IMG/VR virus record: IMGVR_UViG_3300021255_004321
Location: 27,823-91,822 of that record
Origin: a virus
Lineage: Duplodnaviria > Caudoviricetes
Strand: one strand, 5' to 3'
DNA: 64,000 nucleotides
Below, one piece after another: positions 2,725 to 56,030 of the stretch. Position numbers and translations under genes: made by a program. How positions within the stretch are numbered: the stretch's first letter is position 1; each line of letters starts with the position of its first letter. A model generated the notes under the pieces. It had not been told where the DNA came from. It ran no database searches and saw only the letters and a program-made list of their open reading frames with translations.

Positions 2725-2748
2725 AAAAAAGGAGGCCGAAGCCTCCTT
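2725..2748 (-). terminator. intrinsic terminator after uvsX/recA
   Basis: Minus strand AAGGAGGC-TTCG-GCCTCC-TTTTTT: UUCG-loop hairpin plus U tract. Confidence 0.85.
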
Positions 2749-2780: not shown

Positions 2781-3971
2781 CTACGCTTCATCTGCTGCTT
2801 CGTTTTCCTCAGCCTGAGCAACAAGTTTCTCGTATTCTTCTTTAGAGAAGTTCTGTTCTGCCCACTGTTCTTCGTCAGCAGTATTTTCCATACCTTCAAT
2901 CTCATTAGAGATGATGTCCATAATTACATTCTTAATTGCATCCCATTCTTCAGGTTTTACTTCACCTGACTGAATTGCTTTTACGAAAGCGTCTTTTCCG
3001 TGGTAATTCCAACCAAAGTTATTCTTTGAATTGTAGTAACCCTTTGAGCGGCAGTCAACAAGTTTAAGTAATCTTGGGTCTTCTGCAAAGTCATACAAGA
3101 AGTCAACATATTCTCCATCAGAATTGAAGCCGCCTTTGTAGTAAAGGTCCATTTCACATTCACGGAATGGAATACCTGTCTTGTTCTTCATATTGCGGAC
3201 CTGCATATGAATACCTACAACTTTTGAGCCTTCTGTAAGGTTTTCAATCTTACGAACACGGTTAAGAGTTGAAGCAACATATTTCAAAGCGTATCCACCA
3301 GTTGTTGCGATTGCGTGAGACATTGTATTCATCTGAGCACGCTCTTGTGAAATAACAAACATTGTTGTGTGGTAGTTGGCACAAAGAATGTTGAAACGAT
3401 TACAGAAGTCTTTCAAAGCTTTTGCATTGTTACCGAAGTTTGCTTTGTTGAATTCATCATCAAGAACTGTCTTTGTTACTGACATTGACTCAGAGTCAAA
3501 AATAACACAAGCAACTGTGTTTGACTTAATCATCTGCTCGAGAGCAAAAGCGCCTTCTTCAAGGTTATCAGGTTGCAACAATGTAAAGTGAGCATCTTTG
3601 TTGATTGAGCCATCTGGGTTTACCAAAGATGTTACATCAAGACCGTTTTCTTTTGCGTGGTCTGGGTCGAAAGAACGCTCAAAGTCCATATAAACAACCA
3701 TATCGTGGTCAGCAAGTTCTGGGAACTGTTCTCCCAAGTGTTTCTGAAACTGACCTGCAATATAAGTACAAATTGTAGACTTACCGCCCGACTCAGGTCC
3801 AATGTAACGGTGAACTGCTCCGATCTTAATACCGCCACCATACATAAAAGAAAGACGAGGAGAATCAAGTCTCAACATCTTTTTAAGAGTATTTGAATCT
3901 GCAGGCTTAATTGCGTTTGCACATTTCTTCTGAACTGCAGCAACCGCCTTCAAAAAATCTGGACTAGCCAT
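2781..3971 (-). CDS. uvsX: RecA/UvsX-family recombinase
   Basis: Walker A GPESGGKST, 'YMDFERSFD', Walker B VIFDS, 'ISQER', 'TTGGYALKY', 'KNKTGIPFRE'; acidic tail. Confidence 0.92.
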   Translation of the reverse strand: MASPDFLKAVAAVQKKCANAIKPADSNTLKKMLRLDSPRLSFMYGGGIKIGAVHRYIGPESGGKSTICTYIAGQFQKHLGEQFPELADHDMVVYMDFERSFDPDHAKENGLDVTSLVNPDGSINKDAHFTLLQPDNLEEGAFALEQMIKSNTVACVIFDSESMSVTKTVLDDEFNKANFGNNAKALKDFCNRFNILCANYHTTMFVISQERAQMNTMSHAIATTGGYALKYVASTLNRVRKIENLTEGSKVVGIHMQVRNMKNKTGIPFRECEMDLYYKGGFNSDGEYVDFLYDFAEDPRLLKLVDCRSKGYYNSKNNFGWNYHGKDAFVKAIQSGEVKPEEWDAIKNVIMDIISNEIEGMENTADEEQWAEQNFSKEEYEKLVAQAEENEAADEA

Positions 3972-4045
3972 TTTTCCTCCATAAATATAAAGGCCATATC
4001 AAAAGTTGATTGCTCTATTTATAGAGGACACCTTGTAATAAAAAT

Positions 4046-4053
4046 ATATTAAC
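4046..4053 (-). promoter_or_regulatory. class B (putative middle) promoter motif GTTAATAT
   Basis: Also at 5303-5310(-), 8828-8835(-), 10433-10440(-), 22877-22884(+), 25457-25464(+), 38766-38773(-), 58516-58523(-, GTTAATGT), 60293-60300(-), 61194-61201(+), each oriented toward a downstream, mostly non-structural gene. Confidence 0.7.
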
Positions 4054-4058
4054 AGTTA

Positions 4059-4736
4059 TTAAAAACCATCAAGCAAGGCGTTGAATTCATCTTCAATCCA
4101 ATTGCCACTTAAAGTACGATGCATTGTTAAATTCATACGAGGCTGTGTTCTTGGCTGAGGCACATAAGTTCCATTTGCTTTTTGTTCTTCAATCTTTTTC
4201 TGCCACTCAGGTTTCTCAGACTTTGCTTCATAAGGTGACAACTTTATGCCATCTTCACGAAGCTTTTGTCCTACGGGTTTAACTTCTGCGCCTGCTTCTT
4301 CAAACTTTTTTATAAAATCTGGCTTCCCAGGCTGATGTGGGTCTGTAACTTCAAAGTTGTGGTCACCAAAAAGACCAATCTTTGCATCGTATTTATTCAA
4401 GAAAGCAATTGTCTTATAGTTGCCACGAATAATCATACCTTCATTTTTTGGGTTATGACATTCACCATAAATAAACTTTATATAGCCTTCTTCAGGTGTG
4501 TTACCCATTCCTTGAAAGTACTGCATATCATCAATGTCAACATCAATATAGTTGCCTCTGTTTTTTGCAACTGTAATGTGTGGCATTATTGCACCATCTT
4601 TTGTAACAGCTTCTCTTTCAGTATCTGGGTTATCTTCAACAGGCTTTGCCTCTTCCTCAACCAAGTCTTTATCAATAAGACCTAATGCTTTGAGTGCTTC
4701 AAGCTCTGTTTCTGAATATCCTTCAATGTCAACCAT
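4059..4736 (-). CDS. hypothetical protein with acidic/aromatic C-terminus
   Basis: Start moved to ATG 4736, which overlaps the upstream stop (TAATG); ends IEDEFNALLDGF. Confidence 0.6.
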   Translation of the reverse strand: MVDIEGYSETELEALKALGLIDKDLVEEEAKPVEDNPDTEREAVTKDGAIMPHITVAKNRGNYIDVDIDDMQYFQGMGNTPEEGYIKFIYGECHNPKNEGMIIRGNYKTIAFLNKYDAKIGLFGDHNFEVTDPHQPGKPDFIKKFEEAGAEVKPVGQKLREDGIKLSPYEAKSEKPEWQKKIEEQKANGTYVPQPRTQPRMNLTMHRTLSGNWIEDEFNALLDGF

Positions 4737-5296
4737 TACATCCCTCCAAAGATAAACGGGTAAACGTCTTGTTCCCAAATCTCTTCAGGTGTTCTTCCGT
4801 TCAAATGAATAAGCTTCTTATCCAAAGAAGACATTTCATATGCTCTTTCGAAAGCAGCAAGTTCTTGCTTCTTCTTATCAATGTCAAGTGAGAACGACAA
4901 ACCATCGCCTCTTTTCTTGTCTCTTTCAATAACTGCTTCAGGAGTATCTGTAAACACAATCAACTTTGTTACTGGGTTATTATGCTTTACATAATCTTTT
5001 TCATAATCGAAAACAAAGTCACCTGAATAATTACGATATATAGGTGAGTAAACTGTTTCACCAAGATGTGCACGGTCAAATATCAAAACATTTTGATTTG
5101 GAACAACTGACATCAAGCGGAACATTTCACGATAACGAATCTGTGAAGCAACTTTAATTGCATCATTTGTTTCAAGTTTAATGTTTGAATAATGAACAAT
5201 GTGAACAGCTTTTGCAAGCTTCTCAAATTCTTTTTCAATAAGAGCTATCTGGGTGCCTTTACCCATAGCATCGCATCCCTCAATAATTACATTCAT
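4736..5296 (-). CDS. thymidylate-kinase-like dNMP kinase
   Basis: P-loop IIEGCDAMGKGTQ, 'IFDRAHLGETVYSPIYR'. Confidence 0.85.
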   Translation of the reverse strand: MNVIIEGCDAMGKGTQIALIEKEFEKLAKAVHIVHYSNIKLETNDAIKVASQIRYREMFRLMSVVPNQNVLIFDRAHLGETVYSPIYRNYSGDFVFDYEKDYVKHNNPVTKLIVFTDTPEAVIERDKKRGDGLSFSLDIDKKKQELAAFERAYEMSSLDKKLIHLNGRTPEEIWEQDVYPFIFGGM

Positions 5297-5311
5297 AAAT
5301 AAATATTAACC

Positions 5312-6649
5312 TCAGTCTTTGATAATTCTGCGACCTACAGGCGCAGTTGTAGTCCCATTCAATTCTTTTTCACGAGCATCAATAACAGGACCAAATGTAT
5401 CACAAATGAAATCACCGTTAAAGTATTTGTCTTCAAGGATGTCATAAAATTGTTTCAACAACTTTGCATATTCATCACGGTGTTCATACAAATAATCAAT
5501 CTTTTCCCACATTTCTTTAGGAGAAGAAACTTTTACATAGTCTGGGAACTCTTTGAAGTAGCCATCAGTGTCATAAGAGTTCTTGTCATAAAATGGAATA
5601 ATACCATAATAAACCATTTTCCAAGGCTTCTGTGTTACAAAGTTTGGAAGACGATGGTCAAATGCAGGAACATAAGTAAACATTGTTTCCCACATCTCAG
5701 GCTGCATCTGCACAATACCTTTTTCGATAAAAGTATTAGGATGCTTCTGCTTTGCTTCATCACCCCACTTTCCGTAAACCTTTTCCTCAGGATGAATATC
5801 AAGAACCCACTTTTCAAGATAAGACAAACGGTCAGTACCATCATTCAAAGTAAGAACAAACTTTCTCTTTTTCTGATAAACATTTCCGTTTACTTCAATG
5901 TGGTCAGGATTGCTGAAATCAATCTTTGGCATATTTGCCATAAACATTCTTTCAAGTCCTGCATATTTGAAATGCAACTTGTGTTCAACATACTCACCTG
6001 AGTTGTATCTTACAAGACGCTTTACAGAATACTTGTCACTTTCAATCTGGGAGAATGTAAAGATTTCGTGATTGATAATATCTTTATGATTTGATGGCAC
6101 ATATCTTGGGTCTTCATTGATATTATACCAAGGGAAGCCCTGCTTATTCAAAAGATGTATCATCGGTCCACAATAATTTGCTGCCATCTGCATTGGGATT
6201 GCTTCAGTTGGTTTTGTTGCACAAATAATACCTTCACCACCGACTGATACTGAAGCATCAGGTCCTTGCATAAAAAGACCTAAGTCGAACTTCAAACCAA
6301 GATGGTCAACATACTCATCAAGTGTTCGCCAAGCTTCACATCCTTTCTTATGTGTATCAGTTCTTTCCTTACATTTTTCTTTTCCTGCGAACTCTCTTGC
6401 CTGAGCGTGTAAGTCAATAATGTTACTTGGGATGTCAACTTTCTTAAAGACGTTTCCAAACCCGATTGCACTGTTCTTCTTTTTGAAATCAGCAAAGTCA
6501 GATGCACCTACAATATAAAACTTATGCTGCGGGTATCTTTTTGCAAGAGTAAAATAAAATATTTTTGGGCTGTCATCACCTGCATAAATCGACCAAGACT
6601 TTTCATCAAAGTACATTGAACGACCAAATTTTCCAATCGCAATATTCAT
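5312..6649 (-). CDS. putative GT-B glycosyltransferase (phage DNA/nucleotide glycosyltransferase-like)
   Basis: N-terminal MNIAIGKFGRS...AGDDSP, 'NEDPRY', C-terminal 'VYGKW...FVTQKPWKMVYYGIIPFYD...VSSPKEMWEKI' resemble T4 BGT-like GT-B; adjacent to NDP-sugar genes. Confidence 0.6.
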   Translation of the reverse strand: MNIAIGKFGRSMYFDEKSWSIYAGDDSPKIFYFTLAKRYPQHKFYIVGASDFADFKKKNSAIGFGNVFKKVDIPSNIIDLHAQAREFAGKEKCKERTDTHKKGCEAWRTLDEYVDHLGLKFDLGLFMQGPDASVSVGGEGIICATKPTEAIPMQMAANYCGPMIHLLNKQGFPWYNINEDPRYVPSNHKDIINHEIFTFSQIESDKYSVKRLVRYNSGEYVEHKLHFKYAGLERMFMANMPKIDFSNPDHIEVNGNVYQKKRKFVLTLNDGTDRLSYLEKWVLDIHPEEKVYGKWGDEAKQKHPNTFIEKGIVQMQPEMWETMFTYVPAFDHRLPNFVTQKPWKMVYYGIIPFYDKNSYDTDGYFKEFPDYVKVSSPKEMWEKIDYLYEHRDEYAKLLKQFYDILEDKYFNGDFICDTFGPVIDAREKELNGTTTAPVGRRIIKD

Positions 6650-7206
6650 TAGTTGTAACCTCTTACGATATAATAATTTATTCCTGCAGCCATTGCTGCT
6701 TCAATACCTGTCTTTGAATCTTCAAACACAATACAAGTTGAAGGTATCTCATCGAAGTGTTGCATAGTTTTAATGTAGCACTCAGGTGATGGCTTTGTTT
6801 CAACAACATCTTCCTGTCCTACAATAATATCAAACACATCAGTAATCTTGAAGTATTCCAAGATATTATTTATATTAACTTTCGATGCTGCAGACACCAA
6901 AGCAATTTTCCACTTTCTTGACTTAAGGCCTTTAAGCATTTCAATCAACGGAGTATTAAGGGCACCATTTTTGATATACTTTTTATAAAGTTCCTTTTTC
7001 TCATCGTGTATCTGCTGCATAACTTCGGGCGTTATTCTAGGGTCAAGCTGTTTCAAAAAGATTTTATAATTAAGCCCGTTCCATTCTTTGCAATACTGTT
7101 CGTAACCAACATCATACCCGTGCTTTTCGCAGGCTTCTTTGTAAGCAAAGTAATTTATGTTATTTGTGTTGACGAGTGTACCGTCTAAATCAACCATTGC
7201 AAGCAT
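6649..7206 (-). CDS. HAD-family phosphatase/phosphomutase (beta-PGM-like)
   Basis: Motif I DLDGTL, motif II VS, KPSPE, motif IV FEDSKTG. Confidence 0.9.
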   Translation of the reverse strand: MLAMVDLDGTLVNTNNINYFAYKEACEKHGYDVGYEQYCKEWNGLNYKIFLKQLDPRITPEVMQQIHDEKKELYKKYIKNGALNTPLIEMLKGLKSRKWKIALVSAASKVNINNILEYFKITDVFDIIVGQEDVVETKPSPECYIKTMQHFDEIPSTCIVFEDSKTGIEAAMAAGINYYIVRGYN

Positions 7207-7209
7207 TCT

Positions 7210-8124
7210 TTATTCTCTCCAAAAATCATTTAAGTTAACATACTGTGAATAGTATCCGTTATCTTTAGGCTCAGGTAAACAATCGAAAAGACTCTTGACA
7301 TATTTTATATTATCACTGCACCAACGTTTTGTAACATCATCTTTTGCATAAGGCACAATACGATAGATTTTGAAAAGTAAGAAAATCAAAATCTTTTTCA
7401 TCCTAGTGCGATTATTACCGCCAACTCTTTCCAAAAATTCTTGAGAGAATCTTCTTAAGTATTTTTTGTCATCTTCGTCGAGTTCAGTGTAACGATAAGA
7501 CCAATGACATAAGCTGTCCTGAAGAACTGTTGCAATATCAATGTAAGGTGTATCAATGAATGAGTCAAGAAAGTCAATAAGGTATAGAACTCTCGCGGCA
7601 GTAGAATATGTTTCTTTATGTCCTACGATGATATTTTCAAGAGTAAGATCTCCGTGACAGTAACCACCTTTTATGTCTCCAAGATCTTGTTCAAACTCTT
7701 TCAAGAATTCTCGAAGTTCACTCTGAAGTTCAGGAGTCTTTTTAATCATATCATCAATCTTATTTTTGAAAATTACTTTAGAATTCCAAACCTTTCCAAA
7801 AGTAAAGTTGCTTGATATAAAAGCGCCGAGGTCTTCTGCTGAAGAAATACCTTTATGTTTAAGCAACTCTTCTGCAAGTGTATCACCTTCAATAAACGGC
7901 ATCGTTACTGTAACTTTCAAATCATTACCAACCAAGTCTTCTTTAATGTTCAAGACAGGCGTCCCTTCGATTGAGTTACGAGTACCACTCCAACTTGTTG
8001 CACAATACTGTTTTTGTGCCTGTTCACGAAGTCTTGGTGCATAAGAGCCAATTGCAGTCTTTACAACCTTATCGCCCTGCTGCTCAATGTTACAACCCGA
8101 GTTTCCCTTTAAGTTCATTCTCAC
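7210..8124 (-). CDS. APH/choline-kinase-fold phosphotransferase (probable sugar kinase)
   Basis: Gly loop LKGNSGC, VVK, Brenner motif CHGDLTLENI, LIDF. Confidence 0.8.
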   Translation of the reverse strand: MRMNLKGNSGCNIEQQGDKVVKTAIGSYAPRLREQAQKQYCATSWSGTRNSIEGTPVLNIKEDLVGNDLKVTVTMPFIEGDTLAEELLKHKGISSAEDLGAFISSNFTFGKVWNSKVIFKNKIDDMIKKTPELQSELREFLKEFEQDLGDIKGGYCHGDLTLENIIVGHKETYSTAARVLYLIDFLDSFIDTPYIDIATVLQDSLCHWSYRYTELDEDDKKYLRRFSQEFLERVGGNNRTRMKKILIFLLFKIYRIVPYAKDDVTKRWCSDNIKYVKSLFDCLPEPKDNGYYSQYVNLNDFWRE

Positions 8125-8821
8125 TTACCTCTGATTTTAATTCTTTAAGTTCATCAGGTGTTCCAAACTCAAAGTGTTCTTTAACATCAATTCGTTTCAC
8201 ATTGAGTAAGTAATTGTATAAGCCTGACATATAATATTCTTTTTGTGTGCCGTCATTAAAATAAAGAACTGCAGCTTTTGCAAAAATGTCCGCATTCTTA
8301 AAATAATAACAACCAAAGATTGCATAGTTTGAAACAGGATTTTTCTCAACAGTTCCTGCATACTGTGTATCTTTTCCGCCGATGTATTTGATGTAACCGA
8401 AGTGTGGCTCTCTTGACTTAAACGACATAATCGCAGCTTCAACATCTTCACTTATATCAAAGTTTTCGCAACTCATCGCGTGGTCACAATCCTGAAATAC
8501 AATTGGGTCACCATCAGCAAACTGTGATATTCCTGACAAAGCAGTATACACAGGGCCGTTTAACTGATAAGGGAGAACAGAAATTTTAGCACCTGGGAAA
8601 TACTCATAAATCTTTTTATCAATCTGCCATTCATCAATATGTTCTTGAAGAACAATGAATGTTATGTCTTTCATTGGGAAAGCTCTGATTGCTGACTGCG
8701 CAGCCCACCAAAAGAATGGCTTTCCGTAAAGTTCAATAAGTGGCTTTGGTACAGTTATGTCGTCTTTCTTAAATCTTGAACCTGCGCCACCGCAAGGTAT
8801 AACAATATGCACTTTGTTCAT
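8090..8821 (-). CDS. sugar-phosphate nucleotidyltransferase (NTP_transferase, GT-A fold)
   Basis: VIPCGGAGSRF...PKPLI, DCD, VEK, GCYYF, EYY, FGTPDEL. Confidence 0.9.
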   Translation of the reverse strand: MNKVHIVIPCGGAGSRFKKDDITVPKPLIELYGKPFFWWAAQSAIRAFPMKDITFIVLQEHIDEWQIDKKIYEYFPGAKISVLPYQLNGPVYTALSGISQFADGDPIVFQDCDHAMSCENFDISEDVEAAIMSFKSREPHFGYIKYIGGKDTQYAGTVEKNPVSNYAIFGCYYFKNADIFAKAAVLYFNDGTQKEYYMSGLYNYLLNVKRIDVKEHFEFGTPDELKELKSEVSENELKGKLGL

Positions 8822-8851
8822 AAAATGATATTAACATCCTATATAAAAATT

Positions 8852-8878
8852 AAGAGGAACTTGCGTTCCTCTTTTTTT
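8852..8878. terminator. hairpin terminator, probably bidirectional
   Basis: AAGAGGAAC-TTGC-GTTCCTCTT followed by a T tract on plus; GCAA loop on minus. Confidence 0.7.
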
Positions 8879-8892
8879 GATAAAGTTCTTAA

Positions 8893-9414
8893 TTAAAGCT
8901 CAGGAGCATTTAAGATGTCATTATCAAGTTTCTCGAAAGCCTTCTTACGGAATTCGATAATGTCTTTATAATGCTCTTTATACTTTCTGATAGCAGCATT
9001 AGTTGCGGCAACCTGAATGTTGTAGTACTGGTCGTCAAGCTCTTTCTGCTTTGCTTCGATTTCAGTCTTTTCTTTTACTTCTTTCTGTGCGCCTTCGCAG
9101 TCGCAAGAGAATGTAATTGAATCCTTACCTACAAGAACAGCTTCACCCTCAACCTTTGCTTTCTTTCCACAGTAAGGGCAATAAACAGCATCTTCGTAAA
9201 TAGTTTTGATTTCTTTTGCGAAGTCTGTAAGTTCCTTTTCCTGTTCAGGAGCAGGCTGTCTTCCATTAAGCTGCTTCTTTACATTACGCCAATTTCTTAA
9301 CTTGGCTTCCTGATCTTCGTTAATGCAAAGTGCAAATGTTGAAGCACCCGACTTTGCAATAACTTTGCCCAAAAGTTCCTTCTGAGCATCTGTCAAAATA
9401 GTATCTTTTGCCAT
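8893..9414 (-). CDS. hypothetical protein with Zn ribbon and coiled coil
   Basis: CPYCG...CDC followed by a charged helical region. Confidence 0.65.
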   Translation of the reverse strand: MAKDTILTDAQKELLGKVIAKSGASTFALCINEDQEAKLRNWRNVKKQLNGRQPAPEQEKELTDFAKEIKTIYEDAVYCPYCGKKAKVEGEAVLVGKDSITFSCDCEGAQKEVKEKTEIEAKQKELDDQYYNIQVAATNAAIRKYKEHYKDIIEFRKKAFEKLDNDILNAPEL

Positions 9415-9417: not shown

Positions 9418-9735
9418 TTAAACTCCCATTAAAGTTGCTTGTTCAGACTCGGCATCTTCAGGAAGAACAAAACCAAATGAGTTTTCGATTGTCTTCCAAC
9501 CTGTCTTTTCTGTAACAGCTGCGATAACTTCTTCTTTAGCTTTCTTGCCAATTGAAGGAGCATCAATAAGAATGAACTTATCATTGATAGCTTTCATTCC
9601 TCTTTTCTTGTTCTGAAATGTTTCTCCGCTTTCGATAGGAGCATTCAAAACGTCACGAATTACTTCGTTTGCAGAAGGTGTGTTCTCATATCTGAGAAAA
9701 AGTTCACCTTTGCAAAAATCTTCATACATTACCAT
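9418..9735 (-). CDS. hypothetical protein
   Basis: 105-aa ORF with SD GAGG; fits the operon. Confidence 0.6.
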   Translation of the reverse strand: MVMYEDFCKGELFLRYENTPSANEVIRDVLNAPIESGETFQNKKRGMKAINDKFILIDAPSIGKKAKEEVIAAVTEKTGWKTIENSFGFVLPEDAESEQATLMGV

Positions 9736-9804: not shown

Positions 9805-10404
9805 TTATTTTGCTTTCGTTCCAGTCGAGCCGAATCCGCCCGCGCCGCGATTGTTATATTTGAAGTCCTTATAGAATTCATTCTCTGAAATCTTGTTGTC
9901 AGCTTCAACATCAACTTTCTCTTCAGTATAAATGCGGGCTTCCTCAGTGCAGTAAACACGAGGCGCAAGCTGTGTTATTTTATCGTCTTCATAGATGTAA
10001 AGATAATCATCAGAAGTGTTTGTCAAAGACAAATGAATTTCACCCTGATAGTTTGGGTCAATTTCACAAGCTCCCACATCAAGACCTTTCTTTGTTGCAA
10101 TGCCTGACTTGTTTTCAACATACAAGTCCATCTGTAAACCGTAAGAGATAAGCGGCATCGAAAGTTCAAGATATGATTTAATTCCTGATGGAATACAAAC
10201 TCTTTCGTGTGGACCAACCATAATGCATTCTTTACCTGCATCATCTTTTGTAATGTTTACTGCTGCCTTTGGATTCTTTTCAGCTTCCTCAGCGCAAGTC
10301 TTTTTGAATGCATCATTGAACTTAGGGACAAAGAAATCAAATCCTACATTACCGTCTTCACGATAAGGGTCTGCAACATCCCTAACTTTAAGAAACTTTA
10401 TCAT
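9805..10404 (-). CDS. dut: trimeric dUTPase
   Basis: All five motifs: GFDF, NKSG, GACEIDPNYQGEI, ITQL, RGAGGFGSTG. Confidence 0.93.
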   Translation of the reverse strand: MIKFLKVRDVADPYREDGNVGFDFFVPKFNDAFKKTCAEEAEKNPKAAVNITKDDAGKECIMVGPHERVCIPSGIKSYLELSMPLISYGLQMDLYVENKSGIATKKGLDVGACEIDPNYQGEIHLSLTNTSDDYLYIYEDDKITQLAPRVYCTEEARIYTEEKVDVEADNKISENEFYKDFKYNNRGAGGFGSTGTKAK

Positions 10405-10435: not shown

Positions 10436-10828
10436 TTAACACTGTTGTTGATTAGGGCCCTCTTCGTAATTAAGCCACTGCCAATCAGCAGAAATCATTT
10501 CAAAAGTTTTATCAAGGTCCGACTCTAAAGGAGAAAGTCGGCCGAGCAAGTTAATTCTGTATTTCATCCAAAGATTATAATACTCAATTGCAATATCAAA
10601 GAAGGCGACTGGGTTTTCACCCCAAGTGTTCACAACATATCTGTCTTCAGTCAACTTGAGAAACTCTTTAAGTTCTTTATAAAAGTTGCGAACATCAGCC
10701 GCAGCAAGTTCCCAATCGAAATCTTGCTTTTTATATATTATTCTTGTTGCGGCTTCCTTAAATCGTTGTAAGTGTCTTTTGACCCTTAATCTTAAATCTT
10801 GTATTTCATTGTCTTTAAGCTGTCTCAT
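10436..10828 (-). CDS. hypothetical protein, tandem paralogue 4 of 4
   Basis: Shared motif WGENPVAFFDI..EYY..W; start set at ATG 10828 after GGAG. Confidence 0.65.
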   Translation of the reverse strand: MRQLKDNEIQDLRLRVKRHLQRFKEAATRIIYKKQDFDWELAAADVRNFYKELKEFLKLTEDRYVVNTWGENPVAFFDIAIEYYNLWMKYRINLLGRLSPLESDLDKTFEMISADWQWLNYEEGPNQQQC

Positions 10829-11198
10829 TTTCTTCTCCACTTTCAAAAGGGTTTGTTAAAAAATACTTAAAAAAGACATCTCTTACTTCTTGTGTTTGTT
10901 GATAACCACTCCAAAGTGTTGCATCAACAGGCTGCCCAACCTGAGAAAGGTGTTCTCTGTATAAATCATTTATTTTTTCAAACCAAGCTTCAGAAAAAGC
11001 AATTACAACATCATAATAAGATCTTGGGTTTTTAAGAAATTGAAAAAAGTTGTATGTGTCACTAATTGTTTCATAAAGAGGAACAAGGATTTCTTGAGCA
11101 AACGTATAAAATGGCTCATCGATGCTTTGAGCAAAATAAGAATGGAGTTTTGTCTTCAGGACTTCATTGATGCCTGTAATCTTATTTCGTATATCCAT
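10815..11198 (-). CDS. hypothetical protein, tandem paralogue 3 of 4 (most diverged)
   Basis: FLKNPRSYYDV..AF...W; start ATG 11198 after AGGAG. Confidence 0.6.
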   Translation of the reverse strand: MDIRNKITGINEVLKTKLHSYFAQSIDEPFYTFAQEILVPLYETISDTYNFFQFLKNPRSYYDVVIAFSEAWFEKINDLYREHLSQVGQPVDATLWSGYQQTQEVRDVFFKYFLTNPFESGEENETA

Positions 11199-11553
11199 AA
11201 GCGCTCCTATAAAGATCTGCTTTATGATGTACATACGCAATCGACTGATGAAAAAATAATTCATCATCAGTCAAACCACTAATATATTCTTCATAAAAAG
11301 GCAACCAAACTTGTTTGTAATAAGCATCACAAACATCATAAAAAGAAACAACATTGTGTTTCCATTCATTTATCTCTCTTGGGCTCTGAAGCAATTCAAG
11401 GAACTCTTTCAAAGCTTCATATGTTTCTTTTATAAAATCTTCAGGGTCAGTACACTTAAGATAAAATCTAACGCAAGGACGAAGTGTTTTTATAAGGCTT
11501 TCACGAAGCTTGTTTTCTACTGAAAAAGTCAGTGCGTTTTTGAGCAATTGCAT
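11182..11553 (-). CDS. hypothetical protein, tandem paralogue 2 of 4
   Basis: WKHNVVSFYDVCDAYY..VWLPF. Confidence 0.65.
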   Translation of the reverse strand: MQLLKNALTFSVENKLRESLIKTLRPCVRFYLKCTDPEDFIKETYEALKEFLELLQSPREINEWKHNVVSFYDVCDAYYKQVWLPFYEEYISGLTDDELFFHQSIAYVHHKADLYRSAYGYTK

Positions 11554-11917
11554 CTTTCTCAATCTCCTCTATTTTATCAAGCTTTGTATCAAGCACATAA
11601 TTGTAATGTATTTTCTTAAAAGTTTCTGTGAGCCAAATTTCCTCACGAACTAAGTTGTGTTCATTTTTATAAGGGATCCATATCTGTTCCCAATAAGCAT
11701 TGCAGATGTCAAGAAAAGCAATTGGGTTTTCCCTCCATCCATCTATGCAGTTCATATTATTAAAAAGATTAACAAGTTCTTGTAAATTGTCAAATACTTC
11801 AACAACATCTTTATCAAGAGTGTCCCTTTTATCACGATAGTTGAATACGCGGAACACGCTTGAGATATGAACTTGAAGTTCATAAAGTAAATGAAATGCT
11901 TCTTTCCATTCAATCAT
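11501..11917 (-). CDS. hypothetical protein, tandem paralogue 1 of 4
   Basis: WRENPIAFLDICNAYW..IWIPY; start ATG 11917 after GAGG. Confidence 0.65.
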   Translation of the reverse strand: MIEWKEAFHLLYELQVHISSVFRVFNYRDKRDTLDKDVVEVFDNLQELVNLFNNMNCIDGWRENPIAFLDICNAYWEQIWIPYKNEHNLVREEIWLTETFKKIHYNYVLDTKLDKIEEIEKDAIAQKRTDFFSRKQAS

Positions 11918-11930
11918 ATTCAACCTCAAA

Positions 11931-11962
11931 GCAAAAGCCCGCACTCGAAGCACGGGCCTTTG
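11931..11962 (-). terminator. intrinsic terminator
   Basis: Minus strand GCCCGTGC-TTCG-A-GTGCGGGC-TTTT. Confidence 0.65.
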
Positions 11963-11978: not shown

Positions 11979-12335
11979 TTAAGCAGTTTCTACTGCTGCA
12001 TCTTTCTTTGCTTTGTTGCGCTTTACAGCGGCTTTCTTTGCCTTAGGTTCTTTAGGCAGGTCGGAAAAGATGTCGAAAGTATCAACATTTACGTCTCCAA
12101 CGCGGCGGCGGACTGTGCGGGCGATTCCTTCAGCGTAAGTACCCATATCAGCGTATTCTGACTTGCGGAAGCCTTTTACATAAGATCCGTCAGCAGACCA
12201 AACAAAAGTCAGAATGTCGTCGTTGTCCTTGTGAACTTCGATTTTTCCGCCATTTGGAAGATTTACAACTGCATCAACATCTACGCGAGCAATCATCTTG
12301 CGTACCTTAGAAAATGTAAAATTGTGTTTTGCCAT
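11979..12335 (-). CDS. small putative early protein with Lys/Ala-rich tail
   Basis: Strong SD AGGAGG, class A promoter upstream, own terminator. Confidence 0.75.
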   Translation of the reverse strand: MAKHNFTFSKVRKMIARVDVDAVVNLPNGGKIEVHKDNDDILTFVWSADGSYVKGFRKSEYADMGTYAEGIARTVRRRVGDVNVDTFDIFSDLPKEPKAKKAAVKRNKAKKDAAVETA

Positions 12336-12360
12336 ATTTCGGCCTCCTGTTCTGTTTGAA

Positions 12361-12398
12361 TTACAATAATAATATAAAAAGTTGACTGTAAAAGTTTA
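12361..12398 (-). promoter_or_regulatory. class A (putative early) promoter
   Basis: Exact match to the consensus seen at 499-536. Confidence 0.7.
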
Positions 12399-12430
12399 AA
12401 TTTTTATATAAATTTATTCTTTTTTTTTCA

Positions 12431-12493
12431 TATTTATTCCCTCCATTATAGTTCAAATTTTATTTTGACAGATTTCAAGAAAATGTCAAAATA
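12431..12493. repeat. conserved intergenic element, copy 1 (27-bp core plus TATTTTGACA-N13-TGTCAAAATA inverted repeat)
   Basis: TATTTATTCCCTCCATTATAGTTCAAA (12431-12457) is identical at 61145-61171 and nearly identical, inverted, at about 22821-22847. Confidence 0.85.
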
Positions 12494-20702: not shown

Positions 20703-21021
20703 AAAGAAAACTGCTGCAGCAAAAATGAAAGAAGAGTTTCGTATGACACCTGAATGGTGGGCAATGCGAAAAGAGTTGATTGCTGAACAAAAGAAAGACC
20801 CAGTTACAAATGCCAAACTTTCTCCTAAAGCAAACTGCCATCATCTTGACCAACGAACTGAAAACTATACAAGCACCGACAAAAGACGGTATCTTATGTT
20901 GCAACCGCTTACACACAAGGTTATTCATTTTCTTTACCGCTTGTATAAAAAACAAGGAGAGCATCTTTTCGACACTCTCCGTAACATTTTCAAATTGATG
21001 GATAAGTATTCAAACGATTAG
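20674..21021 (+). CDS. HNH endonuclease-like protein
   Basis: 'FRMTPEWWAMRK...NCHHLD...YLMLQPLTHKVIH'; start uncertain (TTG 20674 after GAGG, or ATG 20725). Confidence 0.55.
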   Translation: MRRVKQSKSKKKTAAAKMKEEFRMTPEWWAMRKELIAEQKKDPVTNAKLSPKANCHHLDQRTENYTSTDKRRYLMLQPLTHKVIHFLYRLYKKQGEHLFDTLRNIFKLMDKYSND

Positions 21022-22715
21022 TTTGGGTACTTTTTCCAGAATGAAGCAGGTGTATTTGCTGCCCAAGCAAACTTTTTCTGCTGTGCTGCATTGTAAATTA
21101 TTCCGATGTCAACTCCCAAATCTTTACAGAAGCTGTATGCAACTTTTGGTGAACTGTAATTCAACTTTGCAGTACCAAGGGCGATGTTCTTTGTTGCCTT
21201 TTTAAGGTCTTTATTTGCTTCAAGTTTCTGAACTCTCAATTCTGCTTTTTCAACCTGAGCCTTGATTTTGTTTTCTCTTTCAGCAATTACATCCAAGAGA
21301 CCTTTAAGTTCTTCACCTGAGTACTTCTTTTTGCAAGCTGCCTTCTGCTTTTTGAGTTTTGCAAGCTGAACTTTTGCTTTTGCAGCGCGGGCTTTTTCTG
21401 TTTCTTTTGCCTTCTTAATTGTTTCGTCAGTCTTATCCATCTGAGTTGCGAAGTTCTTTGCAACATTTTTCTGATGATTAAGTTTTGTTGATACAACCAA
21501 GCAAGCATTGTCGTAAATTGAACGGATTTTCCATTCAGGCATTCCCTTCTTAACTTCAGCTTTCTGAAGTTCCTCAGCAAGAAGCTTTGTTCCGTAAGTT
21601 GTGCGGAAAAGTTTTCCTGTTACATAAGACAGGCAATCTGAAAGGAACTTGTTTACTGTTCCTGCAGAAGCTTTATCAAAAACTCTGTCATTTGGTTTTT
21701 TGTTTGCAACAAAAGTCTTCAAAGCTTTTTCAACATTTGCTGGGATTTCAACTGTGTTGTGGTATCTTACGGTATCTTTTCCAAGGAAGTCAAGTTCCAA
21801 GGTTCCGTTTCCAACCTTGATGTTCTTTACGAGGAGCTGGGAAGCGCCTACTGTTCCGTTTTCAAACTTATCAAGCTTTTCAGTGCCAATACGAATACCT
21901 GTGCGAAGTATCAACCAAGAAACAACGGCTTCCTGCTTGTTTGCGTTTACTCCGTCTTCGATATATTTTTCCATTATCGGCCAATCTTTTGCAAGCTGCT
22001 GAGCTTTTTCATACTTGTGTTTGTCAGCATCCTGCTTTACTGTTGAAGTTGCCCCGAAGCCATACTTCTTTTTAAGAGTTGCATAACCTTCTCCGATATG
22101 AACATCAAAATAAGTTGCAACATAAGCTTCACGGTTTTCAACAACTGCCTTCCACTTGTGTCCTGCAGGAGGCTGAGGGATTTTTGATTTGTCACCGATG
22201 TAATTGATTGTGACATCTTCAGGCTGAATTGCCCACTTCCACATTCCGTTCATTGGGCATTTGCCGCGGCCAACATACACTCCTTCAGGCTCAAGAACAT
22301 ATCCGCCGATCTGCTGTTCAACACCATCAAGATAAATTACACCGTATTCTTTTTTGATTTTTTCGTTTTCGAGTTTCTTTGCTTCACGGGCTTCTTTTGT
22401 ATTTGCAAGCTTCTTTGCTTCTTTAATCAATTCGTTTTCTGTCCGCATTGCTTCGATTGTCTTTTCGTATCCTTCAGGGAAAGTCTGAGGCATTCCTGCA
22501 GGAACATTCTTGAGGAATGTTTTTGCAAAGTTTTTCTGAAAGTCGGTACGATTTCGATAGTCGTCGCCAAGAACTGCCCAGTGCCAAAGCATATCTTCAG
22601 AAAGATAATCAAGCTTTATTCCATTGACAAAAAACTTGCCTTTATATTCATAAGGTTTTGGGAAAAGTGGTCCCTTGTGTTCGATTGTCTTAAATTTTGC
22701 AGCTTTTTTAGCCAT
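21018..22715 (-). CDS. top1: DNA topoisomerase IB, long eukaryote/archaeal type
   Basis: IEHKGPLFPKPYE, EPEGVYVGRG, IQPEDVTIN, PPAGHKWK, IRIGTEK, TVGAS, DFLGKD, KLFRT, LNHQK, coiled-coil linker, IALGTAKLNY: colinear with human Top1 motifs. Confidence 0.95.
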   Translation of the reverse strand: MAKKAAKFKTIEHKGPLFPKPYEYKGKFFVNGIKLDYLSEDMLWHWAVLGDDYRNRTDFQKNFAKTFLKNVPAGMPQTFPEGYEKTIEAMRTENELIKEAKKLANTKEAREAKKLENEKIKKEYGVIYLDGVEQQIGGYVLEPEGVYVGRGKCPMNGMWKWAIQPEDVTINYIGDKSKIPQPPAGHKWKAVVENREAYVATYFDVHIGEGYATLKKKYGFGATSTVKQDADKHKYEKAQQLAKDWPIMEKYIEDGVNANKQEAVVSWLILRTGIRIGTEKLDKFENGTVGASQLLVKNIKVGNGTLELDFLGKDTVRYHNTVEIPANVEKALKTFVANKKPNDRVFDKASAGTVNKFLSDCLSYVTGKLFRTTYGTKLLAEELQKAEVKKGMPEWKIRSIYDNACLVVSTKLNHQKNVAKNFATQMDKTDETIKKAKETEKARAAKAKVQLAKLKKQKAACKKKYSGEELKGLLDVIAERENKIKAQVEKAELRVQKLEANKDLKKATKNIALGTAKLNYSSPKVAYSFCKDLGVDIGIIYNAAQQKKFAWAANTPASFWKKYPN

Positions 22716-22727
22716 ATTTTCGACTCC

Positions 22728-22765
22728 TTACAGTAATAATATAAAGAATTATTGGTAAAAGTTTA
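22728..22765 (-). promoter_or_regulatory. class A (putative early) promoter of top1
   Basis: TAAACTTTTAC-N9-TTTATATTATTACTGTAA. Confidence 0.7.
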
Positions 22766-22787
22766 AAATAAATTAACTAAAATTTGC

Positions 22788-22876
22788 TTTGACAAAATGA
22801 CAAAAAATGTCAAAATAAAATTTGAACTATAATGGAGGGATAGAATATTAAGAATTGAAGGTAAATTTATTATAAA
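22788..22876. repeat. conserved intergenic element, copy 2 (inverted)
   Basis: TTTGACA-N13-TGTCAAA, then TGTCAAAATAAAATTTGAACTATAATGGAGGGA = reverse complement of 12438-12470. Confidence 0.85.
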
Positions 22877-22948
22877 GTTAATATATCTTTATAAAACTAA
22901 TTATTTTGAAATACACTTAAACGGTAAATTTACCTGTGGAGAAAAATA

Positions 22949-24724
22949 ATGAAATTGAAATCAAAAAAGAAAACACTTCCATTTAAAATTAAATGGAGAA
23001 CACGCAAAGATGAAGGCGCACTTGAACGCCCAACAATAAAAACAACTGAAGTTCTTATCAGCGGAAAGATTTTATGTTGTATCTTGCTCTCAATAATCTC
23101 AGCATTTATTGATATTGTATTCTTTAGTGGATTGTCAAAGTCGGGTTATCCATTTTTCGGAGTATATGTTCCTGCTGCAATAATTCTTTCTATTATGTCA
23201 ATCGGTTTCTCAGGAAGCAAGTTCTTTGTTGCGATGCAACTTGCTGCAATAAAAGAAATCGGCGGTCGTTTGAAAGATATGCTTGGTGAAAACTACAAGC
23301 ATCGTCTTGTGTGGTTAAAATTAAAATGGAATCTTATTCATAAGTTTTTGATAACTATTTCAATCATAACTTCTATTTCATTGTCAGTTATCACAATCGG
23401 AAACGGTGTTCGTCAGATGGAGCAGAACATCAAAAATCAAACAATTGATGCGCAGTATTTGATTGATTTGAAAACATCAATGAGAACAAATACAACTGAC
23501 AAACGAGAAGCGGCGAAAGCAAATATCGAAGGCGCAAAGTCAGCACAATCTTCAGCAAAAGAAGCAGTAGATAAGTATTGGACTTTACTTGATGATTACC
23601 AAACTAAGATAAGAGCAGTTAGAACAGATGACTCATTGACAGACGAAGATAAAGATGCTCAAATTGCAAAGATTAAAAAAGAAGCAGTAAATTCTTTACC
23701 TGTAGTTACAAGCAAGAATGTTGAGTATATTTCAAAGCCTGAATTTGAAAGAGAGTTTGCAAAAATTACAAAAGCAAATGAAACTATTGATACATCTTCT
23801 TTATATGAAGAAGCAATTGCATACGATGAAGCTGAACTTAATTCTTATATCATAGCTTTGCAGGATAAAGAGTATCGTACTCCTGATGGACAACTTATTC
23901 AGTTTATCAATGAAGACGGCACACCTGTAAACAGAGAACTTGCCATAGCTCGTTTGCAAAACTCAATTATGGCTTGGCAGTCAGATACAGGAGACGCAGG
24001 TCCTTCTTCAAAAGTATTTACTTTAGTTGCAACATATCTTAAGACTGATGAAAAAGCAGGCGGTATGGGAACATCAGAAGTTATTATGATGGTTCTTATT
24101 ATGGTCTTTGGTATTGTTCAGGAATTTATTATTGCTGCATTTACTCCAAGAGCAACAATAAGTCGTAAGATGCTTTCTCAGTTTAGCGAATATCTTTACG
24201 GTGTTGACATCAACAGATTTATGCTTAAGACTTATAAAGATTACTATGACTTAGGTTTGTTGAAGTCTGATGAATATGAAAGAAAATGTAAGAAAGCAGT
24301 AGGACTTCTTGATAACAATGTTGATGCAATTATCGCAAAATATAAAGGTGAAGATGTTGAGAATCCTGAAGTCGTAAGACTTGAAGCAGAAGTTGATAAG
24401 TATAAACAGCAGGCAGAAGGTTATTTAGCAACATCTGCAGACTTTCACAACAAGCTTATGAAAGAAACAGAAAAGAATGAACAGTTGACAAATGATATGT
24501 TGGCAAAAGACGACCTTGTTCAGGATTTGAAGTATAAGCTTGCTCAAAAAGAAAATGAAATTGCAAACCTTAAAGTTGTCGAAGCGCCTGCAGTTGTTGA
24601 GGCAAAGGTTGAGCCAGTAAAAGTTGAAAGAAAGATTGAAAGAAAGATTGTAAAAGAGCCAAAAGAACAGGAATTCTCATCAGCAGTCGATGAGAAAGCA
24701 AAAGAAGTAGAGGCATTGTTGTAA
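22949..24724 (+). CDS. multi-pass membrane protein with long coiled coils
   Basis: Three N-terminal hydrophobic helices, a large soluble loop, another TM segment (VIMMVLIMVFGIV), C-terminal coiled coil. Confidence 0.75.
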   Translation: MKLKSKKKTLPFKIKWRTRKDEGALERPTIKTTEVLISGKILCCILLSIISAFIDIVFFSGLSKSGYPFFGVYVPAAIILSIMSIGFSGSKFFVAMQLAAIKEIGGRLKDMLGENYKHRLVWLKLKWNLIHKFLITISIITSISLSVITIGNGVRQMEQNIKNQTIDAQYLIDLKTSMRTNTTDKREAAKANIEGAKSAQSSAKEAVDKYWTLLDDYQTKIRAVRTDDSLTDEDKDAQIAKIKKEAVNSLPVVTSKNVEYISKPEFEREFAKITKANETIDTSSLYEEAIAYDEAELNSYIIALQDKEYRTPDGQLIQFINEDGTPVNRELAIARLQNSIMAWQSDTGDAGPSSKVFTLVATYLKTDEKAGGMGTSEVIMMVLIMVFGIVQEFIIAAFTPRATISRKMLSQFSEYLYGVDINRFMLKTYKDYYDLGLLKSDEYERKCKKAVGLLDNNVDAIIAKYKGEDVENPEVVRLEAEVDKYKQQAEGYLATSADFHNKLMKETEKNEQLTNDMLAKDDLVQDLKYKLAQKENEIANLKVVEAPAVVEAKVEPVKVERKIERKIVKEPKEQEFSSAVDEKAKEVEALL

Positions 24725-25461
24725 TGAAAGAAAGTGAAGTATTAGAAAAGTTTGAGCTCTTCAAGAATGGACTTATCAAAAAGAATACAAGAATTGGAGA
24801 ACTTGAGCAAGAAGTAAGTAACTTAAAACAGGAATGCAGCGACAAGTCTTTATCAATCAATCAACTTGTTCTGCAAAATGAAGAAAAGGCGAACGCAATT
24901 GAGCAGTTGCGTTCAGATTATAACAACCGCGCCACTGAGCTTGAAAATAAATATAACGACTTGAAAGAAAAGACTTATAAAACAATCAAGCATTTGGTTG
25001 AGGATGTTATCGAAGCTCAAGAAAAGAAGATTGCAGACTTACAAAAAGAAATTATGCGGCTTGAAAACAGAAAAGAAAAACACGACACAACTGAAGATGT
25101 TGATGTTATGATGACAAAAATTCATACGACTGATGTTGATAAGTCAGCAGTTGATGAAACAATGGAGTCCATAAAAAGAGGTGAAAAACTTTTCAAGCAG
25201 TATTCGTTTGGTGTTGCAAACAAAGAAACTGTAAAAATGTTTGAAACATTTATTCATAATATATATGAACAAGCGCCTTTAATCGGTAGATTTTACATTC
25301 TTAATAACCCATTCAACTGTATGAATGGGCTTGATAAAGACGCTTGTGCCTCTTTACTTCAGCATTTAATTCAAGAAAGGATTGTTGAAACAAGAGGTGA
25401 TGAATATATATCACAATACCTTGAAGAAGACGTTATCAAAGAAATCACAAAAGAGTGTTAA
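24724..25461 (+). CDS. coiled-coil protein with possible C-terminal winged helix
   Basis: Heptad N-terminal half; C-terminal 'DKDACASLLQHLIQERIVETRGDEYIS'; TAATG coupling to the upstream gene. Confidence 0.65.
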   Translation: MKESEVLEKFELFKNGLIKKNTRIGELEQEVSNLKQECSDKSLSINQLVLQNEEKANAIEQLRSDYNNRATELENKYNDLKEKTYKTIKHLVEDVIEAQEKKIADLQKEIMRLENRKEKHDTTEDVDVMMTKIHTTDVDKSAVDETMESIKRGEKLFKQYSFGVANKETVKMFETFIHNIYEQAPLIGRFYILNNPFNCMNGLDKDACASLLQHLIQERIVETRGDEYISQYLEEDVIKEITKEC

Positions 25462-25470
25462 TATCTTTAT

Positions 25471-55849: not shown

Positions 55850-56030
55850 GGAAACAAGCAATACCGTTGCGGAGATGATGAAGATGCCTTCTCACTTCGT
55901 AATTGGTATGTATAACGCTTTGCGTAAGATTCTTGAAAAAGAGGCAAAAGCAAGAGAAGAGGCAGAGAAGAAGGCAAACAAAAACATTAAAGCGCCTTCA
56001 ATGCCGCACATAAATATGCCAAAGTTTTAA
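55782..56030 (+). CDS. gp51-like chaperone extension, probably reached by a +1 frameshift (alternative own ATG at 55824)
   Basis: +1 frame open from 55761: EYLLFFRPYAITSLMELLLSLSKE...EMMKMP; no SD before 55824. Confidence 0.6.
   Translation, partial: EYLLFFRPYAITSLMELLLSLSKETSNTVAEMMKMPSHFVIGMYNALRKILEKEAKAREEAEKKANKNIKAPSMPHINMPKF

Follow-up and report, generated by a model that had tools for sequence, protein, structure and literature searches.

Glycosylated cytosines are among the strongest shields of phages against restriction enzymes and CRISPR nucleases, and they hinder the sequencing and engineering of phage DNA. To our knowledge, nucleoside diphosphate (NDP)-sugars made by phages have hitherto been linked to 5-hydroxycytosine (RB69, DLP3, HY126), and glycosides of 5-hydroxymethylcytosine (5-hmC) to sugars supplied by the host. 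The glucosyl-5-hmC system of T4, which draws on UDP-glucose of the host, is encoded in the order uvsX-segA-bgt-42, while RB69, DLP3 and HY126 possess clusters for arabinosyl-5-hydroxycytosine (Afh; PMC13326640, citing He et al. 2026 and Mahler et al. 2025). Here we analyze a cluster of five genes from a member of Caudoviricetes, situated in a 64,000-nt stretch of DNA (hereafter: the window) that corresponds to bases 27,823–91,822 of the 91,822-bp IMG/VR contig IMGVR_UViG_3300021255_004321 (G000; CheckV completeness 31%). The cluster is best explained as the part of a cytosine hypermodification pathway that supplies and attaches the sugar; the phage has a family-A DNA polymerase and a genome of ~300 kb, the size implied by the 31% completeness of the 92-kb contig. 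The cluster would work like the systems of T4 and RB69, and is a member of neither.

The original prediction described five tightly packed, co-oriented genes between those of dUTPase and UvsX, and all five were found where it placed them, on the minus strand; what it passed over are three further open reading frames (ORFs) in the same stretch, two small ones (9418–9735 and 8893–9414) between the dUTPase gene and the cluster, and a third one (4059–4736/4778) between the gene of the thymidylate kinase (TMK)-like protein and uvsX. The genes of the cluster overlap or are separated by 3–15 nt. From the dUTPase side they are:

8090..8821, minus strand: nucleotidyltransferase of the sugar-1-phosphate type, 243 aa (PF12804, 5.3e-6; PF00483, 1e-4; phrog_3980, 3.1e-31)
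7210..8124, minus strand: small-molecule kinase of the APH/ELK fold, 304 aa, predicted sugar kinase (PF01636, 1.3e-6)
6649..7206, minus strand: HAD-IA (HAD_2) sugar-phosphate phosphatase or beta-phosphoglucomutase-like protein, 185 aa (PF13419, 3.2e-33)
5312..6649, minus strand: GT-B glycosyltransferase (GT) similar to the T4 DNA beta-glucosyltransferase (BGT), 445 aa, predicted DNA (5-hmC) glycosyltransferase (fold of the model and company of the gene)
4736..5296, minus strand: TMK-like nucleoside-monophosphate kinase, 186 aa, predicted 5-hydroxymethyl-dCMP (hm-dCMP) kinase (PF02223, 6.3e-6; phrog_761, 1.6e-12)

The 445-aa protein shows no match in Pfam (E ≤ 0.01), PHROG or NCBIfam, and the profile of its family finds no PDB sequence with an E-value better than 0.1. 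The original prediction called it GT-B-like and suggested a structural comparison with T4 BGT, and both suggestions turned out well. An AlphaFold2 (AF2) model built from an alignment of 43 family sequences (mean pLDDT 92.2, pTM 0.90) retrieved T4 BGT from the PDB at ranks 1–6 of the Foldseek search (E-values 1.6e-7 to 1e-6), with T4 alpha-glucosyltransferase (AGT) at rank 7, followed by generic GT-B enzymes. VIA-align also placed T4 BGT at the top (Z 21.1, root mean square deviation 3.6 Å, 308 of 344 residues); the best protein other than BGT scores ~3 Z units lower (Z 18.3), the DNA glycosyltransferase of phage HY126 16.7 and T4 AGT 15.7. The high-confidence model thus shows a GT-B enzyme of two Rossmann domains, superposable on BGT, which is its nearest solved structure. 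Among predicted structures in BFVD the best matches are two proteins of uncultured phages, one of them labelled as a DNA beta-glucosyltransferase, and in the ESM Atlas the feature neighbours form virus-only clusters, while the structure neighbours also include clusters of PF09198 (T4 glucosyltransferase). With regard to the catalytic base of BGT (Asp100), the acidic residues D180 and D360 are invariant in the family, and D122 nearly so. A collection of 5.8 billion proteins yielded 78 clusters of relatives among 2,266 candidates, unnamed except for four with generic 'hypothetical protein' labels, and some family members are encoded on contigs of 200–300 kb; the family appears to be restricted to viruses.

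As concerns the base, a search for a hydroxymethylase gene beyond the window, which the original prediction recommended, returned none on the contig, but it found a gene similar to that of the T4 dCMP hydroxymethylase gp42 in two close relatives that carry the same cluster. One of them (G001, an IMG/VR record of 188,745 bp) shares with the contig five collinear blocks of 88–96% nucleotide identity around the cluster, and is 94–95% identical, in the same orientation, to positions 56,000–64,000 of the window. The other (L095), a contig of 306,108 bp, was assigned to a gut metagenome-assembled genome (MAG). As it contains the entire ten-gene block from dUTPase to uvsX and a gp42-like gene, a 97%-identical copy of the thymidylate synthase (TS) homologue of G001, it almost certainly represents the genome of a jumbo phage, complete or nearly so, that ended up in a bacterial MAG during binning. 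The TS homologue of G001 (274 aa, 43,574–44,107) is ~63 kb from the GT gene, and in the two relatives taken together the distance from the cluster is about 55–63 kb; if collinearity holds, the corresponding gene of the window phage is to be expected ~30 kb to the left of where its contig starts. Compared with 50,697 phage records, the TS homologue of G001 is most similar to gp42 proteins of the T4 type (33–38% identity over 85–91% of the length, E-values 1e-34 to 1e-37).

Asn at the position of E. coli ThyA 169 marks the 5-hydroxy-dCMP synthases, and position 177 determines the specificity for dUMP or dCMP (PMC13326640). In an alignment of E. coli ThyA, T4 gp42, RB69 gp48 and the TS homologues (those above 150 aa were kept, and two truncated ORFs of ~100 aa, from loci L023 and L069, excluded), 48 of the 48 TS homologues encoded near members of the GT family, as well as those of G001, phage 9183 and phage XG4, exhibit D/C/D/D at ThyA positions 143/146/169/177, i.e. 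the pattern of T4 gp42; RB69 gp48 has E/C/N/D and E. coli ThyA has L/C/D/N. The TS homologues of the close relatives G001 and G005:C130 have Asp at position 169, and the full gp42 signature is present in both close relatives. Since every TS homologue examined shows this signature, the GT family is, as judged from these residues, paired with enzymes of the hydroxymethylase and not of the hydroxylase type, and the base is probably 5-hmC. Adjoining the TS homologue of G001 is the gene of a 238-aa protein (L087, 2363–3079) with a weak, below-cut-off match to S-adenosylmethionine lyases (PF23780, 1.2e-5), which could play an anti-restriction role beside the hydroxymethylase.

The same association is seen across other phages that encode the GT family. 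Our IMG/VR scan returned 142 relatives of the GT, for which 79 loci were fetched and all ORFs of at least 70 aa compared by phmmer (E ≤ 1e-3); many of these loci are short or truncated, and the counts are lower bounds. A TS homologue was found within the fetched flank (within 10 kb) of the GT gene in 50 of the 79 viral loci, a fused nucleotidyltransferase-kinase in 46, a small HAD similar to RB69 gp51 in 41–42, a homologue of the window nucleotidyltransferase in 16, dUTPase in 12, and homologues of the window HAD and kinase in 3 and 2, respectively. In G004 (262 kb, 97% complete) the TMK-like gene overlaps the TS homologue by 4 nt, and the latter is 2 kb from the GT gene. Homologues of the GT from cultured phages are limited to five records (25–28% identity over 90% of its length), one of Pseudoalteromonas phage XG4 and four of Enterococcus phages of the genus Denvervirus (9183/Planchet). 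Like the loci above, these have the GT gene next to that of a TS homologue in which the gp42 signature is conserved, and in the Enterococcus phages the cluster additionally encodes a dUTPase and a TMK-like kinase; unlike the window, both groups have, instead of its cassette, a small HAD and a fused nucleotidyltransferase-kinase (phrog_4098/24015) that matches the PHROG of RB69 gp52:53. Megablast of window positions 4000–9000 against the 50,697 phage records gave no match. We found no paper on this GT family, on the DNA chemistry of the Denvervirus phages or XG4, or on a gp42-type 5-hmC pathway with a phage-encoded route to an NDP-sugar; a preprint (10.1101/2023.12.21.572611) ties virus-encoded DNA glycosyltransferases to methyltransferase/TET pathways.

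Compared with T4, the GT has BGT as its nearest solved structure and is encoded beside uvsX, as bgt is in T4, and the TS homologue of the relatives is 33% identical to T4 gp42, with the same signature. However, where T4 relies on the host for UDP-glucose, the window phage encodes a kinase, a HAD and a nucleotidyltransferase of its own; its GT is ~95 residues longer than BGT, its dNMP kinase is TMK-like and not gp1-like, the hydroxymethylase gene is ~60 kb away in the relatives, and the DNA polymerase is of family A. Because neither a PF09198 match nor a gp56-type dCTPase was found on the side of the window phage (the latter in G000, G001 and G004), the cluster is not of the T4 type.

The resemblance to the Afh clusters is one of layout and composition. 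RB69 has the order uvsX-TMK-GT-TS-...-HAD-kinase/nucleotidyltransferase-isomerase-polymerase, and the window has the same order minus the TS homologue and the isomerase; both systems encode a kinase, a HAD phosphatase and a nucleotidyltransferase by which a sugar phosphate would be turned into an NDP-sugar, together with a GT-B enzyme and a TMK-like kinase (PMC13326640). The TMK-like kinase, in which the P-loop and the DR motif are visible, belongs to phrog_761 together with RB69 gp45 and ORF043 of phage 9183, is 23% identical to gp45 (BLASTP E-value 3e-4), and scores 26.4 bits against PF02223, just under the 27-bit cut-off. In contrast, the window kinase and nucleotidyltransferase are separate genes of the bacterial type, whereas Afh clusters have a fused AfhE-like protein, and the HAD belongs to HAD_2, whereas that of Afh clusters is of the small gp51 type; the domain families as such (NTP_transferase, APH, HAD) are common to both. 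At E ≤ 0.001 neither the nucleotidyltransferase nor the kinase matches phrog_4098, which the proteins of RB69, 9183 and XG4 do match, and BLASTP of the window proteins against RB69 gp53 and gp52 gave E-values of 0.47 and 0.055, and no alignment to gp51. The window relatives also show the hydroxymethylase signature where Afh clusters have a hydroxylase, and the contig has no arabinose-5-phosphate isomerase. Because the D169N replacement was not found in the TS homologues of the close relatives, nor the isomerase and AfhE/AfhF-like proteins on the contig, which is a fragment, the cluster does not count as one of the Afh type either.

The three sugar-activating genes have a different origin. The matches of the nucleotidyltransferase to PF12804 and PF00483 are only just above the respective cut-offs; among PDB sequences it resembles generic NDP-sugar pyrophosphorylases (4evw, 8.1e-9), and MurU (4y7t) is not among its 30 matches at E ≤ 1. 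Its best match in the phage database (MT837550, 39% identity) was dropped as evidence from phages, being a short, bacterial-looking scaffold: this 6,634-bp record (MT837550.1, 'Bacteriophage sp.'; L004) encodes a GT2, an NAD-dependent epimerase, the nucleotidyltransferase and an LPG-synthase-TM/APH fusion, and looks like a bacterial surface-glycan locus. The cyanophage matches are located in general sugar clusters. The kinase, which probably starts at the ATG at 8118 as judged by homologues, finds no PDB sequence with an E-value better than 0.14; its model (pLDDT 93) retrieved mycobacterial maltokinase, an anomeric sugar kinase, as the top Foldseek match (8.1e-9), followed by APH(2'') aminoglycoside kinases, and HGD...IDF motifs are invariant in the family. 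For the HAD, the best PDB matches are a sugar-phosphate phosphatase (3kbb, 2.2e-19) and beta-phosphoglucomutase (4.2e-16), while it stays under the NCBIfam equivalog cut-offs (TIGR02009, 2.6e-30, below cut-off).

The kinase has 1,355 homologues, and those with a named source are in part from bacteria of the gut and rumen. When one genome per species was scanned, 170 kinase relatives were identified, of which 80 loci were kept; with the phage-like L095 left out, 79 remained, classified as bacterial by record titles alone. Within 7 kb of the kinase homologue, a homologue (E < 1e-20) of the nucleotidyltransferase is present in 30, of the HAD in 33 and of both in 29 of these 79 bacterial loci, with median identities to the window proteins of 38% for the nucleotidyltransferase, 42% for the HAD and 29% for the kinase. 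Because of this co-occurrence in 29/79 loci, the three genes can be taken, from sequence comparison, as a conserved cassette of gut and rumen bacteria. The kinase of L095 is 80% identical to that of the window, and a recorded contig of 301 kb encodes a kinase identical to the latter; the lengths of these two contigs agree with the genome size of ~300 kb given above. The claim that the phage makes a sugar 'its host lacks' is not supported, given how common the cassette is in gut and rumen bacteria; this very sugar could well be produced by the host, too. A set of sister phages (L010–L014; GT 53–55% identical) retains the frame dUTPase – small ORFs – TMK – GT – uvsX, with a 542-aa fused nucleotidyltransferase-kinase and a different HAD instead of the three-gene cassette, a comparison that shows the sugar module to have been exchanged inside a conserved locus, the cassette replacing the fused kinase/nucleotidyltransferase of the sister phages.

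In the anabolic recycling of N-acetylmuramic acid (MurNAc), MupP (a HAD_2 protein in Pfam), AmgK and MurU convert MurNAc-6-phosphate into UDP-MurNAc (PMC5371407). The window encodes the same three families together (HAD_2 phosphatase, APH-fold anomeric sugar kinase, small sugar-1-phosphate nucleotidyltransferase); the likeness is one of family composition, and the product would here be passed to a GT of the DNA type.

From all this we infer the catalytic steps, the base, the sugar and the biological role as follows. First, hm-dCMP would be produced by a gp42-like hydroxymethylase whose gene would be located in another part of the genome; the TMK-like kinase (4736–5296) would phosphorylate hm-dCMP towards the triphosphate, and the base would enter the DNA at replication. 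The HAD_2 phosphatase, the APH-fold kinase and the nucleotidyltransferase (6649–8821) would convert a phosphorylated host sugar into an NDP-sugar, either by the logic of MupP/AmgK/MurU, from the sugar-n-phosphate via the free sugar to the sugar-1-phosphate, or by that of AfhE/AfhF and GmhB, via the sugar-1,n-bisphosphate to the sugar-1-phosphate; in the AfhE/AfhF order the kinase step comes first and the phosphatase second (PMC13326640). The BGT-like enzyme (5312–6649) would then put the sugar on the hydroxymethyl group of 5-hmC in double-stranded DNA, and the glycosylated base would shield the phage genome against restriction enzymes and CRISPR nucleases. Such post-replicative glycosylation of 5-hmC with a phage-activated sugar, with the TMK-like protein acting as hm-dCMP kinase, seems to us likely on the strength of sequence and modelled structure. 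DNA sugar hypermodification with a phage-made NDP-sugar and a dNMP kinase, as originally predicted, therefore stands as the best reading, given the BGT-like fold, the linkage to gp42-type genes and the RB69-like layout; what the original prediction called 'new' applies to the enzyme family and the combination with the cassette, which are uncharacterised, and not to the scheme, which is known.

Several observations weigh against this explanation. The original prediction saw no TS homologue in the window, which is correct and holds for the entire 91,822-bp contig (PF00303 and PF02511, both 0/1; the contig is ~31% complete), and the hydroxymethylase of the window phage is deduced from its relatives. 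Because no MazG-type or gp56-like dCTPase was found in G000, G001 and G004 (PF03819 and the RB69 gp56 protein, both 0/3; of these genomes G004 is 97% complete, and the search with the gp56 protein lacked a positive control), the exclusion of dCTP from the DNA would be left unexplained, and cytosine may be replaced only in part. The tie of the 445-aa protein to BGT at the level of profiles is weak, if non-random (hhalign of the family profile: E-value 1.1e-4, probability 56.6%, 230 columns), there is no PF09198 match to the protein (a genome-wide PF09198 search was also empty, but so were its controls), and a fold shared with BGT in a model is no proof of the acceptor. In pairwise comparisons, the window proteins resemble the RB69 enzymes marginally or not at all (E-value 3e-4 for the TMK-like protein and 0.055 for the kinase, with GT, nucleotidyltransferase and HAD all not significant). 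Finally, the bacterial homologues of the cassette are located in bacterial chromosomes, where DNA is no target, and the flagellin and FlaA homologue encoded by the phage are conceivable protein targets of glycosylation.

The last two points lead to the view that the cluster does not act on DNA at all and makes an NDP-sugar for a host surface polysaccharide (in superinfection exclusion), for virion proteins or for the phage flagellin. Sugar clusters of jumbo phages have been interpreted as surface-polysaccharide modifiers (PMC7824862); nonetheless, we consider this unlikely, for it leaves the linkage of the GT to gp42-type hydroxymethylases (50/79 loci) unexplained, the nearest structures include both T4 DNA glucosyltransferases, and the cluster lies among DNA-metabolism genes, beside a dNMP kinase, with no membrane-protein-like ORF visible by eye and no flippase, polymerase or lipid-carrier transferase hit by the family scans. 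Were the system of the RB69/DLP3/HY126 type, the base would be 5-hydroxycytosine from a flavin-dependent TS homologue, with a sugar such as arabinofuranose in ether linkage. The parallel gene order next to uvsX, the identical composition of kinase, nucleotidyltransferase, HAD, GT-B and TMK-like proteins (PMC13326640) and the structural proximity of the HY126 enzyme (Z 16.7) speak for it, but it is made improbable by the Asp at ThyA 169, without D169N, in the TS homologues of both close relatives and all 48 beside the GT family, by the absence of a SIS-type arabinose-5-phosphate isomerase from the contig (PF01380, 0/1; control positive in 14/14 genomes, the contig being a fragment), by a HAD of a different subfamily that does not align with RB69 gp51 in BLASTP, and by a GT and nucleotidyltransferase with no significant similarity to RB69 proteins.

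Another candidate product is glycosylated 5-hydroxymethyluracil (hmU), for which dUTPase and dCMP deaminase would supply dUMP to a dUMP hydroxymethylase, the TMK-like kinase would act on hm-dUMP, and the GT would decorate hmU. TMK-family kinases act on thymidylate-like substrates, the dUTPase gene is close by, the dCMP deaminase of G001 is 3.5 kb from the TS homologue, and the searches of G001 and G004 each returned a single gene of the TS family. We nevertheless hold this to be very improbable: the best matches of the TS homologue are gp42 proteins of the T4 type, every homologue examined has Asp at ThyA 177, the determinant of dCMP specificity (work cited in PMC13326640), and the cytosine-modifying phages RB69, DLP3 and RL38J1 also have a TMK-like kinase beside the TS homologue (PMC13326640). 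The original prediction added that the sugar was 'perhaps' attached at the nucleotide level, i.e. that the GT acts on hm-dCMP or hm-dCTP and the kinase, whose gene is directly downstream of that of the GT, phosphorylates the glycosylated nucleotide. This suggestion fares worst, and we give it the least credence of all: in the precedents (T4 and DLP3/RB69) the sugar is added to DNA, as judged by the titles of solved structures of T4 BGT and by PMC13326640, which places tri-arabinosylation on DNA, the gene that the TMK-like gene of G004 overlaps (by 4 nt) is that of the TS homologue rather than that of the GT, and the kinase is better explained as an hm-dCMP kinase.

If the cluster indeed mediates post-replicative glycosylation of 5-hmC, it suggests a third combination next to the two described so far, namely 5-hmC of the gp42 type with a phage-encoded sugar supply. 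More tentatively, and at somewhat less than an even chance, the sugar may be other than glucose: the bacterial three-gene cassette, captured into the conserved dUTPase...GT-uvsX locus, would give a 5-hmC glycoside that is undescribed, as part of a widespread 'glyco-hmC' system of the BGT-like family (142 IMG/VR relatives, 78 clusters), in which phages of the sea, of the gut and of Enterococcus would combine gp42-type hydroxymethylases with sugar cassettes that can be exchanged for one another. Close relatives would then diversify by sugar swapping, in parallel to the 5-hydroxycytosine glycosides described in 2025–2026. The sister phages with the same GT, TMK-like kinase and flanks and another sugar module provide a concrete case of a possible change of the DNA sugar by cassette swap, and the presence of the GT family, widespread in uncultured phages, also in cultured phages of Enterococcus and Pseudoalteromonas makes it testable at the bench.

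Apart from the five genes, the locus comprises the following features:

9805..10404, minus strand: trimeric dUTPase (PF00692, 4e-7; TIGR00576, 3.3e-14; all five dUTPase motifs visible by eye)
9418..9735, minus strand: small ORF between the dUTPase and nucleotidyltransferase genes
8893..9414, minus strand: small ORF between the dUTPase and nucleotidyltransferase genes
8852..8873, minus strand: terminator-like hairpin 3' of the preceding gene (9-bp stem, then a T-rich tail)
8828..8836, minus strand: TGTTAATAT motif, putative extended -10-like element, ending 6 nt 5' of the nucleotidyltransferase ATG
5303..5310, minus strand: GTTAATAT motif, ending 6 nt 5' of the ATG of the TMK-like gene
4059..4778, minus strand: ORF with no assigned function in a co-transcribed position, 239 aa from TTG or 225 aa from the ATG at 4736
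2781..3971, minus strand: UvsX/RecA-like recombinase (PF00154, 1.7e-28; phrog_97, 3.3e-51), on the same side as in T4 and RB69
2729..2748, minus strand: strong terminator-like hairpin 3' of uvsX (stem of 8 bp, five of them GC, followed by a run of T)

The hairpin at 8852–8873 likely marks the start of a separate transcription unit, and that at 2729–2748 likely its end. The ORF at 4059–4778 has no match in Pfam or PHROG and no lead in the ESM Atlas, and its conservation does not extend beyond the closest relatives (L007 and L095). The original prediction placed the cluster under 'class B' (DNA-metabolism) motifs, which was borne out as far as enrichment goes: GTTAATAT has 12 matches in the window versus 2.8 expected, and TGTTAATAT has 6 versus 1.0, among them sites upstream of the nucleotidyltransferase, uvsX and dUTPase genes. 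The arrangement GTTAATAT-N6-ATG occurs three times, versus 0.04 expected, at 8819–8835 (nucleotidyltransferase), 5294–5310 (TMK-like kinase) and 25457–25473 (another gene). From its sequence and position, GTTAATAT looks like an extended -10-like element that would give leaderless or near-leaderless mRNAs. A dispersed intergenic repeat of ~60–130 bp (~80% identity; some copies between divergent genes), found in the window at 61047–61171, 12328–12457, 479–555 and 22728–22879 and in at least 10 copies in G001, is probably a shared promoter or regulatory region. On the 5' side of the dUTPase gene (10436–11953, minus strand) are four tandem small ORFs (126–150 aa) with no family match, which look like paralogues by eye; three of them have the stretch W-x-x-N-P/V-[VI]-[AS]-F-x-D-[IV]. 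In G001, an IS200/IS605 element (L007, 14069–15708) follows directly 3' of uvsX, with a TnpA Y1 transposase (2.7e-30) and a TnpB of the OrfB_IS605 family (1.7e-21); it is not in the window's contig.

As regards the lineage, the synteny around uvsX had suggested a T4-like phage, which was rejected because the DNA polymerase is of family A. The polymerase is split and permuted: an ORF with the C-terminal polymerase part (G000 21,746–22,798, plus strand; L092 2746–3798) precedes the one with the exonuclease and the N-terminal polymerase part (23,620–25,680, plus strand; L092 4620–6680). Also 5' of the window, two adjoining genes of the contig (G000 13,037–14,809; L091 13037–13849 and 13952–14809, minus strand) encode a full-length flagellin (PF00669, 2.6e-42, and PF00700, 2.2e-26) and the FlaA homologue (PF04620, 3.4e-10; in Pfam, flagellar filament outer layer protein). 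FlaA is a spirochaete protein; this cargo is unusual and may hint at the host. Complete eukaryote-like topoisomerases IB are uncommon in phages, and the window encodes one of 565 aa with all three domains (21018–22715, minus strand; PF02919, 6.3e-38; PF01028, 3.1e-47; PF14370, 1e-17). On the plus strand, it also contains two giant ORFs of 2,344 and 3,910 aa (28267–35301 and 42731–54463).

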